Origin: Tubulanus polymorphus
Lineage: Eukaryota; Animalia; Nemertea
Length of the DNA: 64,000 nucleotides
Reading direction: 5' to 3'
Assembly (NCBI RefSeq): GCF_964204645.1
Contig: NC_134026.1
Coordinates: 22,726,150-22,790,149, forward strand
The notes beneath the pieces were generated by a model. It saw only the letters and a list, made by a program, of their open reading frames with translations, was not told the DNA's origin and did no database searches. The position numbers and the translations under genes are program-made. The first letter of the stretch is position 1. The number at the start of each line of letters is the position of its first letter. This document shows, piece by piece, positions 22,672-33,495 of the stretch.

Positions 22672-22787
<116 letters not shown>

Positions 22788-23926: not shown

Positions 23927-26900
23927 TTAACCGATTTTGATTTTCTTGGTGGGGTGATGAAATTCAGCAGCATTAGTAGCGGAGACGGGAACGACGACGA
24001 TAGTTTTAGTGCCGGCTGTCGATGACGCCCCGGACGCCACGACAGTCACCGCGTGAGCACCAGCCTGGTTGACGGCGTGGGCAAGGGAGGCAGGAACGGT
24101 AACAGCAGTGGCTCCGGAATTGAGAAGAGATGTGGCTGGGATGCTACTAATGGAATTTACGGTTGTAACTTTCGGTGCTACGGGTGCGCTAGCTGATCTT
24201 CCATTCTCTAAAGTGCTCATTGTGCCCGAACTACCAAAATCTGTCAACTGAAGAAAAGACAAAAACTAATATGAATTAAGATACAATCAGATCCAAACTA
24301 TCCATCAATCAAACTTTACAAGTGATAATATCATTTCTTTCATGATTTCTTTTTCGTTTCTCTAATCTTAAATTAAGTTGATCATGCTTAAATAACTTCT
24401 AACATAATGTCCATTGTTTGCTTAGCTAAACTATTAGGTTAAGTGTTGTGTAAACGATTAACATTTATTTACAATTATCATTAAGGGAACATTGGGCGGA
24501 GTTTTTTTTTGTTGACTAGAATAGTAAATCAGGCCAGTTCCAATGAGCTAGAACATGTCGCACCTCTCCCATGACAGCGATTGGCGTGTCTCCTGTTGCG
24601 GCTGCTACTTTATGCTCAACCAAGTAGAACATGTACTCATCGTACAACAGACGGATTAAATGGAAGGAACCAAAACTGGCCGCACTACGCAGGGTTAAAT
24701 CACGAATAACCATCGAACTAAAAATAGATATAAAATTCATATATTCAATCAGACATTCTCATATTGAGCATCAAGTTTTTAGGTAGTTTGATTGGTAACC
24801 AACCTGTAAAAAGACCATTTTAATAGGAATTGTCGAGCTGCTTTTGCGAATGACGGGCTGCCTTCATGCGGTTTGAGGACCTGGTTCACCACTCCTTCAA
24901 GCCAAATAGCCCACTGTTCAAGTGAGTTTTGTTGCTGCAATGTTTTCTTGAAGTCTTGTTCTAAACGTGTGACGACTGCGTCGTCGCACTGGCAAACCCA
25001 AGATGCTTGCTCCTGAAAATTAGATCAATGCGTATGAGAAACGCTCCTCAAATATCCGCTGACCATTTTAACACCGTTTCACTACCGACTTACTTGGACA
25101 TTATTGAAGTCAACCCTGTTTAAGTCAGTGAGCATCTGATTGATTTGGGACGTATTCTGAAGGACAGCTCTAGCAGCCTGAGCAAGGTGATTTAGGGACG
25201 TATATCTCCTCAGGGTCTGAGCGAATGCACTCACAGCAGTTATCTGCTGCTGTGTCATTTCATCGGGGATTCCTTCCATGGCATTTTTCAGCCATGTTTC
25301 TAGACTCTTCGCGAAGTTACGAATCGCTTGGGTCAAGGAACCTATAAGAAATCAACAAATTTCAAATTGGTATTGATATCTTATAACATTGACATTATGC
25401 ATGGTAAATCAAGTCGGACTTACTCGGAATGGGTCTGAGGACGTCTGGAATGAGTACTTCGACGAGGGACTGATAGAAGGCATAATCTGATTGACGAATG
25501 TATCGCAGTACAGGCTCATATTTACAAACTCCCTGCAATTTATCTTTTGGCAGTCGTTTCTCGATTGCAATATCACTGAAACACAACAATAGTGGATATA
25601 GCTATGAACAACACTACTATTAATGAGTAAATTTTGGGTCGAATATGCCAGCGAAACACTCACTTATGACTACTCTCCTCAGGATTTCGCCAAAACGTTC
25701 TCCATAGATTCTCGATAAGGCTGAATTGTAGATTTACGACAACATCTAAAACTGCCTGAAAATCGAAATGGAGAAGACTGCGATGTTAGATACATATTGT
25801 GAAAACACAAACACAGCCAAATGAATGCATGTGATCTGTCTATATATACCTCGCAATGCTCCCTATACAGCTGCTCCATTATCCTAATGTGGTCCTTGTT
25901 AACTCCTTCAGGTAGGGGTATTGTGACCGTGTCGATGGATCCAAAATGTGGAATGGCACCAGATGCATCGCCGAGGAACTGTTGATGTTGCTGGTTAGAT
26001 GAGGTCTCATGCGATGCGGCGGTTGCGCTATGTGACGCATCTCCACTATCAGATCCTTCGGTTTTGGTGTTCACCGCTTTAAACCTGCAAAACATAAGAC
26101 AAATGAGCAACTACCTGCAACTGAATCAAATACTGGATATTAAGATCAACATTTAAGGAGTTCATATTCTAGGTATTTTTACCTTTTGCCTTGATTGATA
26201 GGCTGTTGTCTCATGGCCATTGTCTGATCATCGGTGAACTGATTCAGCGGAGAATTAGCCTTAATGCGAATTCCGTAATAATGATACTTAGAATTACCCC
26301 TAATAAGAGAATATGCATAAAACATGAAAATGACATTCATTACGATCGTCGTGATATCTTTGAAACGGAGTAAAAATTTCAATCTCAATAGTTGACATCG
26401 AACATCAACATAACAGACAAAGATGAAAGTCAAAACTTAGCAGAAAACCAAAAGCACAACTCAAAACATGCCAACTGTTTTAACATGTGATCAATGTTGC
26501 CCACAATACAATGTATAGATAAACAAATGAGCTACAATATACTGTCAATAATAGACACAAACGCAGTATTTCATCCGTTACAACAACGAATAGTTAAGAA
26601 TGCCAAGCATACCAGATTTTCAATAATATACACAGAATGTACAGACAATACTAAAATAAATTCTAAAAACATTGAAAGCAATAAATAATCTTCACAAAAT
26701 GAAAATGCAACCGGCGTCTTCTCCGAACGAAAGATATATTGTGGGCAACACTGATACTAAGAAAATATGGTAAGTGTTTAAAATGTTCTAGAAACTGAAA
26801 ATCATGAGCACCCGACCCCGAAACTTTGTGAGCTAAAAATGATTAATGTATAAACTATCAATGAATTATGGAATGTGGTTAGGTCTAGAAATTTTGGTGA

Positions 26901-29900
26901 ACCATGAAATTGAATCATCTCTACCTGGTCCCTAATCGACGGGTCCTCAGGCCCAGAAAAACTGAGCGTATGAGCTTGCCAAACGAAGCAGGGTTCATAG
27001 GATCCATTTTTTGTTCATGACAGTGTCGGAGATAATGGTTATATAAGGTGCTCCTCGGCAGGCTCACTCCATCAGCCGTTTCGTAATTTTCAATTAGCCA
27101 CTGAACCTAAGGCAATACACAAAAACAATGATAAACATGACACATATATTAGAAAATAAAGTAGGTAGAAAACATTGACTACCTTTTACCCAACCGACGG
27201 GTCCGTAACCCCATAAACACTGAACGAATCAGCTTTCCGAATGATGCAGCATTCATTGCATCTTGTTTAGTTTCTGCGCAGTGTTGCAGATATAGGTTGT
27301 AAAGAGTACCACGGGGTAAGCTCACACCATCTGTTGCTTCGAAATGCTCAAATAGCCACTGAACCTAACAATCAATATCACAATTGTATATATTCGAAAC
27401 AATTAACCGGCGATGAAGCATTTAAGTCCTCAAGAAGTGTGAGCGATAAGAGAAGGAAATGAATCTGTGATTCATTAGGGGAATCCTATAGTTTGCATGC
27501 TGTAAATGAAAACCAAAGGTAAAGCAACAAAAGAAGACTTCATTACTGGATTTAAAAACATCCTGAAAAAACAGCCAAGCCAGTCTAATCCGTATTTCTC
27601 ATTAGTTGGCAGCAATATGAAATTTATTCAGGATTAGGAGAAGTTCAGATTAAAGAGAGATAAGATGCAGCCAACAAAAACACAAGTCAAGAGCTCAACA
27701 CGGATAAAATTGGATTGACTGTATGAACAACTAAAGCAGGAATGACATGAATATAACAGGTAACCATCATCTGTAGACTTCAGCTGTAAATTAATGATCA
27801 ATGACATATGAGTGAATAGAAACTAAATAAAACAGCCATCATAAAAAGTCATCATATAAATGGATAATTTCAACAAATTCACTGGTCAGTAATCAAAACC
27901 TGCTGCGCATAATGTTAGTTTCTACTGTTAAGTTGCTGAACTGTTAAGTTGCCGATTCATTACCCCAATGTCCAGCTGATAACTGATAATACTTCAGGCA
28001 CTAGTTCCACAATGAAGTCAAATTTAATTGACCTGTGGAACTGGCACCAGGATTTTTCATATCGGGAGTTCATATTTTATAGCGCACAACAAGCTTTGAT
28101 CATTGCTATAATACAGGATTTTGAATAAGCAAACATCTACATATTTCTAAACTCTACGAATACATCTTTATTTGTGCTGCCACTCTTTGCAGGCTACACC
28201 GATCTACCTGGTACCTGGTAGTAGACCCTACTACAGTATTATCGAATGCAGTTTCTTTCAAATGAATATAATTGCATACATACTATTGATGTTAGCATAA
28301 ATGTACCCCGAGACATAAGGTAAAACACTCTTTGTTATCGATCTTTGACAATAGTGAAAGGATTAAAATAGATTAATAAAATTGTATATACAAAAGAAAC
28401 AAATTTACCACATCTGGTCTGATCATGAAATAGGCGTTCACAATATTATTTTCAAAACAGTACTTTTACAAAAACATCAAAGGGAAATGGCTCAATAATG
28501 AAATAACACGACAAAACAGAAAAAATCTGATAATACATATACATAAATACATATTTATAGTTACAATTTTACTTCTTACTTCTGACCTCGACTGAATGAA
28601 ATGAAACTAATAGCTTTTCATTAGGAACTAGACACTGAAATTGCGGTCAATTATTCAATGATAAAACAACCTAGATTGAAAACGTTGGTATCAATAAATG
28701 AATAAAGAACAAGAACAGAACTAATAGTAGGTAAATTGGTAGTGTTAACTAGGAACTAAACGACCACAGCATTGAATTGTTCTAGAAATGAAGATTCTAA
28801 TCCTAATAAAACATATCTCTCTGTGTATAAGGTCTAATAAATGACTGTTGTCTAATAAATCTGCCAACTATTAATGAAAACTTAACTTTTTTTCTTTTTC
28901 TTTTATCACCTTTTATGACAATAACACCAACGAAGTTGAGTATGCTTTCAAAAAACATCTAATATATCTGATAAGACAATTGGATTATTGTCGCAAGGAG
29001 AAACATCAAAATAATCAAACTCAACTGTGATATAAATTTCAAACGAGTCATTAAAAACAGGCAATCACATTCCTTCGAAGCGTCTCTCAAGTCTGACTCA
29101 CTGAACTACCATCATGGGAATTTTGCTGTAATTAACAAGTTTCAGCTTAGACTTTATTCCAGAGTCCATGTTCATAGATTCTACTAGCAAGGTGTCAGTC
29201 TCGCATATAACTGACAGAATACAGACACAGTACAACAAGACGAACAAAGATTACGTCATTGCATTAACAATGGACTCACTAGATAGAAAGAACGGCCAAA
29301 TAAAACTGATTGATATTCAAATCAAACGGTAAGACTGATGTATCCAATAAAATCACCATACGGTATATCCCCATTGATATTGTAGAATTTGCATTTGCCT
29401 GTTTTTAATTGAAAAGCGGGTTTCTTCGAATCTGTCCACACCACACGCGCTGATCGACTGATTGTAGCTCCTATCGACAACTGACTCATCCGCAGAGCAT
29501 GTACCGCCGGGGTGAACAATATACAAACACTAAACAATCACTATATATACCTCTTTTTCGTGGGCCTTCAAATCAACGCGGTTGCTCCACGACGACGGAT
29601 GGTAATTTTGCGCTGGGTCTTCATTACCCGGAGCCTGATCGCTGTATTCCCACTGAAATTATGCAAAGACGAAAAAAACGATGCCAGAATCGCTCGATTC
29701 AACATGTACATACAGGTGCTCGTGATACTTACTGTGGCCGGAGAGGCTCTCGTTGTATGAGTAATTGGGAACCCCTCCCCATCCATAGTTCCCCCTTGTA
29801 GCAGGTACGTGCCCCCGTGTTGAGCCATGAACTGTCGCTGAATGCTCTGCACCTGCAATAAATAGTTTACTCATACTCAGCCGCCAACTCTATCGGTTTT

Positions 29901-32900
29901 AATTCCGATGATTATCTCAATGGTTCCAATTCTTTTTTTATTTTACACTAAATCTATATCTAGGTTTATTAGTACATTTGTCTTTAAGATTTGAGAAAAT
30001 AATTCCAAATATCAACATTCTGAATTGTATTGCTACTAGCTATAATCAATTTTGAAACACTTTTGAAAGCAAACAGGTCTAATTTTCATAAACATATTAT
30101 CTATATATATATTTCATCAAGGATAGTTACTATATGTAATCGTTAATGAATTAGTTTTAGTAATATTAATCAACGAATAATAAAAGTTGAGGAGTTAATA
30201 GTCACGGGTAGTCAGTCAATCGGATTAACACAGGATATAGGTGCAGAGTTTTTATTGACACGGCAATGATGGTGCATACTACGACAGTATAAGCAGCAAC
30301 AGCGGGGGTCACTCCTGATGTGAGAAAATAGAGAAATAGACGAAGAAGATCATCACATTATCATCAGATTAACATATGACATGATGAGCAGTTGGTGGTG
30401 TTATACAATAAACTTCAATGAGCTCTCGATTCTTCCTTTACAACGATCAAAATTGATTTATACCATGCTTTACAACGATTTCCAAAATTTTCACTCAATT
30501 TTCATCAACTTTAACCGGACTCCCTACGAGCTCGTGCAAAGTTTACTGCGATTCGAATGACAGGGTTACAGCGCTATGCACTCATGAATAATATCTATAA
30601 TCTTTTATGCAAACATCCGCTGCTAAAAATAGCGAGGTACGTTTCGGAGGCAAGACAAATACCGGGATTACAAAAAAAATGTATGTGATATAATCTGCAT
30701 ATCAAATCCATCGACAATGTAATGATAAACAGCACAGTATTTGTCCCCACCGCTATAATAATTAATCAGGTGGGTATAGAATTAAGGATATAATGAATAA
30801 ATATCATAAGCAGCATGCGGATGATGCAATATGAGAACAGTATTAAATTCTCAATTCTGTCAGTTTCTTGGATCACTTCCCATCAGGCTTTAGTCATACT
30901 AAATCTGCACAAGGGTTCAAACTATCGACCATATAAAGGGTCTAAGTATCCAACCAGGCTTTTCTATGCAATGCGCCGTTATCATATCTTACAACCCGAT
31001 CTTTCGTAGGTAAAAACCGTGCTTGAGAATCGTGGCCACAGAATGAACGCATCATCGCCACGATCATTTGGTGAATGAAAAGGTTTTTGAAGAGATTCAG
31101 TGCACAAAACATCATACACGAGATTGAGCACGAATTTAGGGGGTTTGAATGATTAATTACACAGCATGAAGTTCAATTTGTTATCGTATTGCTAGGGGGG
31201 TGAACCAAGAAAAGTTATAGTTTTAGCGGTAGAATTCATGGAAAGATCGAGAAAAGTAACACTTACTTGTGATCCGGAAGCTGTCTGATAGTATGTTCCA
31301 GATACAGGAGTATACATAGCTGCCTGAGTATAGTCTGTGTAGTTTTGCCTGAAACATTCATTTACAAACATAGATGATTAACCAAAATAATTCACGATAA
31401 CAATCGGTACACCATTCAATATTCTATTCAGTTCATTTCAATAAATTGCAGTTTATAACACAGAAACATTTTGAGATTCAATCTCAGTAAAACTCAGCTC
31501 TCTACAGATCTAAACATTTAGAAGGATCCAGGAACTGAACACAAATTATATCCGTCAAATACATGTTGGTTACTTTACCTGAATTCAGTTAGAAACGAGT
31601 TTAAAAGAACATTTAAATAAAAAAAATCGAACACATAAATGGACAAGGAGAGGTCCTAGTTACGTTTTCAGATGTTTCTCGATTCAAGTTTTCATCGTCC
31701 CTTTAGAGACTTTTTATGTGAAATATAAATTTCAAAAAAAATAGATGATATACATCAGATGTTGCCCATAGGTCAAATTATAATAACTCAATCAAGAAAC
31801 ATTGTTTAAACAAACTAAGAACAATTAAATCACAGTGAAGTAGGTGAAAGTTTGGTCTCAGAATTTGTAACGGAGCTAGATTTCCATTTCATGATCAATT
31901 TATCAAGTTTTAGCAATATTTTTAATGGAAACCCAGCCCGAACGAACTGTGTGCAAAACAAGAACAAAGCATCAAAATTTTGGCTCAACTATCTGTTACG
32001 AACAACAATATTTGCTTGTGGTGAACAAGAATCAAGTTAGGTCAAATTGTCCGATTCAAAGCTTCTCAAAATCGAAAAAATTTTGCCGCCTACAAACGTA
32101 GCATTCGTGTGAGCTAGCGAGCGGCAAAAAATTCATCGGAATCTTGAATACGGCCATGTGCCACTACAACACTGCAACATTCTTGTGAAAACTCTCACAT
32201 TTGTCCATTTGTAGCGGCATATACAGTAGGATCGGAACTTTCCACATACTGGACATGAGCTGGATATACAGTCTGTCCAGCAGCTGCTTGAAGAGTCACT
32301 GTTTCCGTTGTGTTTGCATTCTCTTGCGTGTTGTTCTGTTCAGCTGCCGCAACTGATGCTTGCAAAGAAAGAAAAAACGTAAGCAACTAGTAACATCCCC
32401 ACTAACAAAATAGAACACGTGACGATCAAATAAGACTATTTCATACAGTTCATTGTGAAGAGTCTCTAATCGGATTAATCTGAATCTCAGGATCGTATAT
32501 CGTTTTTAATGCAGTTTATCTCGATGCAGCTTTGTACTTGATCACAATTCATAGACAAAGCTACATTAGCTAAGATACATACACTTAGATCATCGTTGAA
32601 ACACTGATTCCTCATATTATCTTTTATATATGATAACTTTTTCGATCAATTCGAAGCTTCTTTTTAATCTAGTAGAACACAAAATGAGCAGTTCCACTTT
32701 GTGAAATTAGAAAATAATTGAAAATATCGCGCAATAAAAGATTGGGTTCTTACTTGTTACGATAAACTGCTGTCCGGTTTGAGCGGACTGGATGATAGTA
32801 GCAGTTTGTGGAGCTGCTTTCGTCGGCGTCTGTGGTGACTGACTAGGAGTATTACTCTGTGTTCCTAAAGCCTACAAAGACACGACATTCCGAATATCGC

Positions 32901-33182
32901 CATTAGAAACAATAGCCCGAGTTGCTCTCGCATTCCGAATATGAAGTCAAATCAATTCCCATTTCGTTCATTTCTAGCGGCCATCGTTATCTTAAAGTCG
33001 CTCGCTACTAGTCGAGCGACGATCGATTGGAAATTTCTCGGTCAATATCTGCCCTGAAAACGCACCGTTGAACGGCGTGAACAAAAGATTTCATTATTCC
33101 CATCATCGATTCACATTGTACTCACCTGGATATTATTGGCGTTAATAGCCTGCATCTCTGTAACGTATGTTTGTGTCGCCAT
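23927..33182 (-). CDS. RFX: RFX1/2/3-class winged-helix transcription factor (daf-19/Rfx-like)
   Basis: Start [12 protein letters not shown] (RFX1-like) at 33182. Exons: 33203-33126, 32871-32754, ~32355-32199, 31348-31267, 29852-29733 (HTTRASPAT), DBD exon 27364-27183 or 27106-26925, 26299-26183 ([13 protein letters not shown]), 26084-25850, ~25755-25665, ~25576-25423 ([10 protein letters not shown]), ~25341-25094 ([18 protein letters not shown]), ~25012-24804, 24717-24564 ([21 protein letters not shown]), 24247-23927. Confidence 0.96.
26925..27106 (-). CDS. RFX: RFX DNA-binding-domain exon, copy A (mutually exclusive)
   Basis: ccttag|[61 protein letters not shown]|gtagag; 182 nt, phase 0-2. 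Confidence 0.93.
27183..27364 (-). CDS. RFX: RFX DNA-binding-domain exon, copy B (mutually exclusive)
   Basis: tgttag|[61 protein letters not shown]|gtagtc; 182 nt, phase 0-2. Confidence 0.9.
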
Positions 33183-33495
33183 GAAACTGTCCTCTTGTTC
33201 TGCCTGAAAATACACAAGGATTGTAAACACGGTCAGCATTACAGTACATTAGATAACGAAAAAAACAAAAACTTACTTTAATCATGAAAAAAGAATCGGT
33301 CATATTTTGCACTAAAACTAGTCTTTCATAAAAATGCTTTATTGAAAGCCAATTATCGATGTTTGTTGCAGGAATTGCACTCGGATAATATCATAAAAGT
33401 AACAATGCAAGCCGACAATTAATTCGTCAAGCGTTATGGATGTCCTGTGGATGCCGAGTTTGTCATTAGCAGATTAAGACTATTGATTCATATGC

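Follow-up and report, generated by a model that had tools for sequence, protein, structure and literature searches.

In the ribbon worm Tubulanus polymorphus, a palaeonemertean, the RFX1/2/3-type gene contains two tandem versions (A and B) of the exon that encodes most of its winged-helix DNA-binding domain, and exactly one of the two is compatible with a full-length protein. In the interpretation that we favour, with a probability of roughly 0.55, exon A is the default and exon B is a rarely used or cell-type-restricted alternative, which would give a full-length RFX protein that recognises the same X-box core, with an altered affinity or partner surface. That exon B is a live alternative exon in one way or another, whether it tunes binding or switches the motif, appears quite probable.

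Gene structure and the duplicated exon

The gene was analysed in a window of 64,000 nucleotides (the whole stretch of DNA, in which all positions below are counted). Its 15 exons in the window correspond exactly to RefSeq XP_074640484.1, named 'DNA-binding protein RFX2-like' from Tubulanus polymorphus, with exon A 100% identical to that protein. The cluster of XP_074640484.1 has one member, this being the single RefSeq model, and it includes exon A and leaves exon B unannotated. The relevant features are as follows.

23927..33182, reverse strand: entire coding region of the gene (RFX1/2/3 type), comprising 15 coding exons in RefSeq; PF02257 and PF25340
29733..29852, reverse strand: exon U1, 120 nt, phase 0-0; ends ...TRASPAT; in the RefSeq model, absent from the contig of run X2
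29551..29652, reverse strand: exon U2, 102 nt, phase 0-0; 34-aa insert right before the DNA-binding domain; the actual upstream splice partner of A
27365..29550, reverse strand: intron between U2 and B, 2186 nt; a YTRAY lies 38 nt ahead of the acceptor of B; pairing no better than in shuffles
27183..27364, reverse strand: exon B, 182 nt, phase 0-2; derived, unannotated copy of the DNA-binding-domain exon; 15 substitutions relative to A, including S20G and T61K (1DP7 numbering)
27107..27182, reverse strand: intron between B and A, 76 nt; a single branch-point-like CTAAT (A at +34) and two poorer candidates of the form yUnAy, at +26 and +51; translation continuing from B into it stops at once (TAG)
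26925..27106, reverse strand: exon A, 182 nt, phase 0-2; conserved copy of the DNA-binding-domain exon; in XP_074640484.1 and the X2 contig
26300..26924, reverse strand: intron between A and D, 625 nt; 19-nt inverted repeat of 95% (26490-26508 / 26737-26755)
26183..26299, reverse strand: exon D, common downstream exon; completes Arg62 and encodes the rest of the wing (K66, Y67)

The PF02257 domain scores 84.2 bits with exon A and 75.3 bits with exon B, both above the cut-off of 27 bits, and PF25340 (the B, C and dimerisation region) scores 393.9 bits on P0122, the protein encoded by this gene. With either copy the predicted protein is of the RFX1/2/3 type, having PF02257, PF25340 and the nine DNA contacts considered below, and X-box binding is predicted from these features.

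The coordinates, splice sites and open frames given in a preliminary description of the two exons were all reproduced: the copies are intact, 182 nt long and 76 nt apart, both start AG/GTTCAGTGGC and end AG/GTAG, and both frames are open. The duplicated exon covers residues 2-62 of the winged-helix domain, about 61 of the 76 domain residues. The copies share 46 of 61 residues (45 of 60 whole codons and the split Arg) and 126 of 182 nucleotides (69%), and at 25 of the 45 identical residues the codons differ.

The frame arithmetic of the preliminary description also held. With the full exon set, exon B alone gives a frame of 782 aa, and so does exon A alone. Inclusion of both copies reads ...RLGKRFSG and then a stop, skipping of both reads ...G and a stop, and retention of the intron likewise ends early. 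The frames stop at codons 278 (B+A), 215 (neither) and 275 (intron retention), which is 1376, 1201 and 1461 nt before the last junction, respectively, and thus more than 1.2 kb in every case. The two exons had been called obligately mutually exclusive; this is correct for the protein product, by virtue of the frame, and any enforcement at the splicing step itself is hypothetical.

Of this gene's exons, only the DNA-binding-domain exon has a second tblastn match, which rules out the remnant of a whole-gene duplicate, and no third copy was detected by tblastn within the window. An assembly or haplotype duplicate is ruled out by the 69% identity and the saturated synonymous sites. One contig of sequencing run X1, possibly the window's own source, spans both copies in one piece. 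An alternative terminal exon is ruled out as well, with AATAAA absent from the intron and the GTAG donor common to A. Comparison of the flanking introns revealed no similarity above shuffles that would mark the borders of the duplication (35/200 and 150/200).

Several neighbouring features were recorded along with the gene. A likely non-coding first exon of RFX, matched by eye to the loose end at 33207 of the X2 contig, lies at about 37020-36961 of the window (reverse strand); short ATG-initiated frames occur in and before it. Directly upstream of RFX on the same strand is a nucleoside diphosphate kinase gene with six exons (38937-37985, reverse strand) and introns of 79-91 nt; three of its exons match PF00334, all below the cut-off. 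A long (AT)n microsatellite (22675-22781) lies downstream of the RFX stop codon.

Selection on exon B

The proposal that the two copies represent an old duplication under purifying selection is borne out by saturated synonymous sites, by the rejection of neutrality and by the preference of the changes for variable columns. Between A and B, pS is 0.80 (33.7/42.0), which is saturated, and pN is 0.16 (22.3/138). A maximum-likelihood codon model yields an omega of 0.04 (LRT 57.7), with dS of about 3.6, a poorly determined value. In a fairer null, with A held at an omega of 0.005, the log-likelihood is -409.5 for a neutral B compared with -392.5 for a free B.

The columns changed in exon B are less conserved than the others (mean 0.70 versus 0.88, p = 1e-4), and none of the 10 near-invariant columns is changed. 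In 5000 neutral simulations with 15 changes each, an equally good placement arose in 0.02% of cases with the set of 141 sequences and in 0.5% with a set of 31 sequences gathered with A as query. The B residues are found elsewhere in the family in 14 of 15 cases in the full set, part of which came from searches with B itself, and in 3 of 15 cases (p = 0.14) in the A-query set. Simulations without a stop (37%) and without a hit on a contact (19%) were common, neither being significant alone. The intact frame of B limits any silencing to under about 0.10-0.16 neutral substitutions per site, with indel rates assumed. Because synonymous sites are saturated, neutrality is rejected and the changes lie in variable columns, exon B has been selected as protein; as judged from these substitutions, it has long been under purifying selection, and a very recent relaxation would be compatible with the same data.

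Origin of the second copy

Exon A matches Lineus at 57 of 60 positions. Its NPASF motif, which the preliminary description took as deviant, is the state in the nemertean (Lineus), the molluscs and the annelids examined, and B is the odd copy. For exon B, the highest identity to any of 141 distinct domains is 46/60; these domains derive from 157 stretches of 503 proteins after leaving out 16 that were gapped, partial or A itself. In these alignments exon A is the conserved lophotrochozoan copy, and exon B the derived one.

No B-type relative was found in the protein collections (among the best 120 of 2151, 61 of 61, and the best 150 of 903 matches), the best full-exon identity to B being 78%; searches of protein collections would miss an unannotated exon in a relative. 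No second version of the exon is present in six isoforms of Lineus longissimus or in the isoforms listed for seven clusters that are either molluscan or unnamed, and the RLGT-R exon boundary is the same in genomic open reading frames of relatives. P0121, P0458, P0482 and P0498, with two or four domain matches, were considered as alternatives and rejected, their domains being repeated in one chain; P0458, P0482 and P0498, which are unnamed, carry two to four diverged RFX-like domains per chain. Among the Lineus longissimus RefSeq isoforms one wing residue differs, SKYYYYG in P0126, P0240, P0242 and P0245 versus SKYHYYG in P0241 and P0244, a difference that may reflect RNA editing, a small alternative exon or an artefact of modelling.

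In a tree of 24 rows and 60 columns exon B falls outside the lophotrochozoan clade (90/93), on a branch of 0.44 compared with a median of 0.017, but a sister grouping of A and B is not rejected in the same tree (p-AU 0.435). With only 60 columns and this result for the A+B grouping, the tree cannot date the duplication. At exon positions 6 and 12, where Lineus differs, exon B has the residues of A (E6, D12); M37 is common to exon B and lophotrochozoans, and exon B also has the outgroup-like residues A39 and M51. A duplication in the Tubulanus lineage with some reversions seems, on these residues, simpler than an older origin. The outgroup residues A39 and M51, together with the position outside the clade in the best tree, nevertheless suggest a bolder scenario, in which exon B is live, cell-type-specific, older than the lophotrochozoan radiation and a second DNA-reading mode for a ciliary master regulator. 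We regard this scenario as improbable. If exon B did predate the radiation, other spiralian RFX genes may contain copies that annotation has missed, and a live and ancient exon B would be the first case of an RFX diversified by splicing rather than by gene duplication.

Transcript evidence

Four sequencing runs (X1-X4) from one study cover the region; none is recorded as RNA, and they are available as contigs only, which drop rare variants. Run X2 behaves as mRNA, with a contig of 3376 nt that contains 13 GT-AG spliced joints. This contig joins 29551>27106 and 26925>26299, that is, exon A is used and exon B is jumped. It also omits U1 (29852-29733) and joins 31267 to U2 (29652-29551). In both known transcripts, therefore, U2 (29652-29551) immediately precedes the domain exon, rather than an exon ending at 29733 as previously supposed, so that the junction 29551>27364 is also relevant to the use of exon B.

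The use of exon A is thus documented by RefSeq and by one spliced contig; for exon B, neither coverage nor a joint was found in the X2 contigs, which represent one RNA-like sample of unknown tissue. Because contigs drop rare variants, this absence is not evidence of silence, and exon B is at most a minor form in the X2 sample. Runs X3 and X4 consist of short unspliced pieces with adaptor-like loose ends that are uninformative on expression; we take them to be proximity-ligation libraries. One X2 contig within the intron stops at 27406, which is 42 nt short of the B acceptor, and could not be linked to a splice event.

The X2 contig differs from RefSeq at other places. In the exon at 32358-32199 (reverse strand) its acceptor lies further downstream (about 32352) and its donor comes earlier (about 32250), making the exon ~19 codons shorter. 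U1 and U2, both of phase 0-0 and 80 nt apart, are both present in RefSeq, whereas X2 keeps U2 and drops U1 with its conserved ...TRASPAT. An insert just before the domain occurs in 64 of 128 matched lophotrochozoan-type proteins, and vertebrate RFX2/3 and other lophotrochozoans also vary by inserts before the DNA-binding domain, which suggests that the insert site next to the domain is a recurrent splicing hotspot.

How one exon may be selected

A frameshift with likely nonsense-mediated decay is the only mechanism that the sequence itself demands. Transcripts with both exons or with neither would be removed by this decay, as has been described for the double-included and double-skipped forms of CaV1.2 exons 8a/8 (PMC3060452), perhaps aided by the very short intron between B and A; mechanisms of exon exclusivity are listed in PMC5224494. 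Of 13 short introns inspected, this one is the shortest, at 76 nt compared with 79-98 nt for the others, and the CTAAT at +34 could hinder the joining of B to A. A steric block of this tropomyosin type is no more than a possibility, given that a second, poorer branch site may lie at +51 and that an intron of 91 nt is spliced although its lone YTRAY is at +37. The preliminary description had suggested looking for competing RNA pairings in the flanking introns, but five duplex scans for pairings of the docking-site/selector type found nothing above shuffles, 7/60 to 16/30 of which were as good as the observed sequence. The inverted repeat in the intron between A and D (26490-26508 / 26737-26755) loops out 228 nt of intron only and no exon.

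Predicted effects of exon B on the protein

DNA contacts reported for RFX1 are R19, K45, R48, R57, R58, G60, R62, K66 and Y67 (PMC12311785). An alignment with 1DP7 shows that the B form retains all nine: the duplicated exon itself encodes six of them, the split codon encodes R62, and exon D provides K66 and Y67. Two of the B changes directly adjoin contacts, S20G beside R19 and T61K between G60 and R62, and Lys at position 61 occurs in 0 of the 141 domains. Of the other changes, one is at exon position 51 and twelve fall between positions 5 and 39; A and B have the same helix 3 (40-50), and in the wing strand the copies differ at position 61 only. A structural model of exon B alone, folded on the family alignment, has a helix-strand-helix-helix arrangement with 1DP7 as its best match (E 0.02, pLDDT 76.6); the wing is incomplete and the last strand absent, and the model adds little.

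These comparisons weaken the earlier suggestion of two DNA-binding specificities, since the nine contacts are unchanged, although the positions of S20G and T61K lend it some substance. The division of labour offered there as an example, between motile and sensory cilia or between germline and soma, is speculative. Because all nine contacts are kept, an altered affinity or partner surface would be likelier than a new motif. We infer that exon B is still spliced in somewhere and that the B form recognises the same X-box core, differing from A in affinity, stability or partner contacts. S20G and T61K would act by tuning contacts with the backbone, whereas the remaining substitutions, most of which lie near helices 1 and 2, may alter stability or protein contacts.

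Alternative explanations

Against the favoured reading of exon B as a rarely used or restricted alternative, no transcript or protein with B has been seen, the RefSeq annotation offers a single model with A, and the sole spliced contig skips B. The same absence from RefSeq and from the spliced contig would be expected if exon B was functional for a long time and is now silenced, or spliced only as noise, a recent relic without a lesion yet. Such a relic would also fit the lack of a relative with a B-like exon among the proteins searched and the long end branch (0.44 versus a median of 0.017), and the lesion-free state permits death within about 0.1-0.16 substitutions per site. However, the frame, the length and both splice sites of exon B are intact and its changes favour variable columns, and one RNA-like data set of unknown tissue, in contigs that drop rare variants, cannot show absence. 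We consider this explanation unlikely.

A live exon B could instead change base preference as FOXP1 exon 18b does (PMC11701043), so that the splice choice redirects RFX to other sites. Selection on B is consistent with this, as are the precedent itself and the substitutions S20G, beside R19, and T61K, in the wing between G60 and R62 and absent from the 141 other domains; the nine unchanged contacts, the identical helix 3 and a wing strand differing only at 61 speak against it. These residues are almost wholly conserved in RFX6 and RFX7, and the two proteins have been suggested to bind similar elements (PMC2533330), which likewise makes such a switch distinctly unlikely. Still another role would be regulatory, with exon B included together with A or read through, resulting in destruction of the mRNA or in a truncated, dimerisation-less protein. 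Double inclusion and intron retention both lead to early stops, the B donor AG/GTAG ends a read-through protein right after Arg62, and the 76-nt intron is near the size of other spliced introns (79-98 nt), so B can probably be joined to A. A poison exon, however, needs no protein-level constraint, yet exon B is strongly constrained; A has the same GTAG donor, which is therefore an inherited feature, and the truncated form would be without K66 and Y67. A purely regulatory exon B is thus highly improbable.

Significance and comparison with known systems

Few domains in animals vary as little as the DNA-binding domain of RFX1/2/3, whose end branches measure about 0.017 in cnidarians, insects, molluscs and vertebrates. 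A selected second copy with 15 changes in one gene is a natural experiment on how residues beyond the nine contacts tune affinity or partners, and it would show an invertebrate gaining RFX diversity by splicing where vertebrates used paralogues. It also identifies an exon that is missing from the public gene model. The weight of the case is limited by its coming from one non-model species, by exon B being known from genomic sequence alone and by a design known from FOXP1 and TCF3.

No RFX gene with a mutually exclusive or duplicated DNA-binding exon was found in the portions of the literature covered, including PMC3685541, PMC2873420, PMC2533330 and PMC4327956. The RFX instance is apparently undescribed for the family, and its design is already known from other transcription factors. 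Within the family, human RFX1 (1DP7), DAF-19 and lophotrochozoan RFX2-like proteins share PF02257, PF25340 and the nine contacts with the Tubulanus protein, and the RLGT-R boundary recurs in genomic open reading frames of relatives. The isoforms of C. elegans daf-19, by contrast, differ by promoters and an optional exon (PMC3685541).

In their frame logic the twin exons resemble CaV1.2 8a/8 and U2AF1 Ab/3, pairs of equal-length exons not divisible by three in which double inclusion or skipping shifts the frame (PMC3060452, PMC5224494); unlike the RFX exons, these do not encode transcription-factor DNA-binding domains, and regulators are known for them. In TCF3/E2A, exons 18a/18b (E12/E47) are same-size, mutually exclusive DNA-binding exons that are 74% identical (PMC6120717), compared with 69% of nucleotides for the RFX pair. 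The TCF3 domain is a bHLH rather than a winged helix, and its exon choice also changes dimerisation, whereas the PF25340 dimerisation region of RFX is common to both forms. FOXP1-ES differs in that critical residues and the motif are altered and both isoforms have been shown, whereas RFX keeps its nine contacts and the B form is predicted. The likeness is that FOXP1 18/18b are mutually exclusive exons in a winged-helix DNA-binding domain with the frame kept, one form being restricted to a cell state (PMC11701043).
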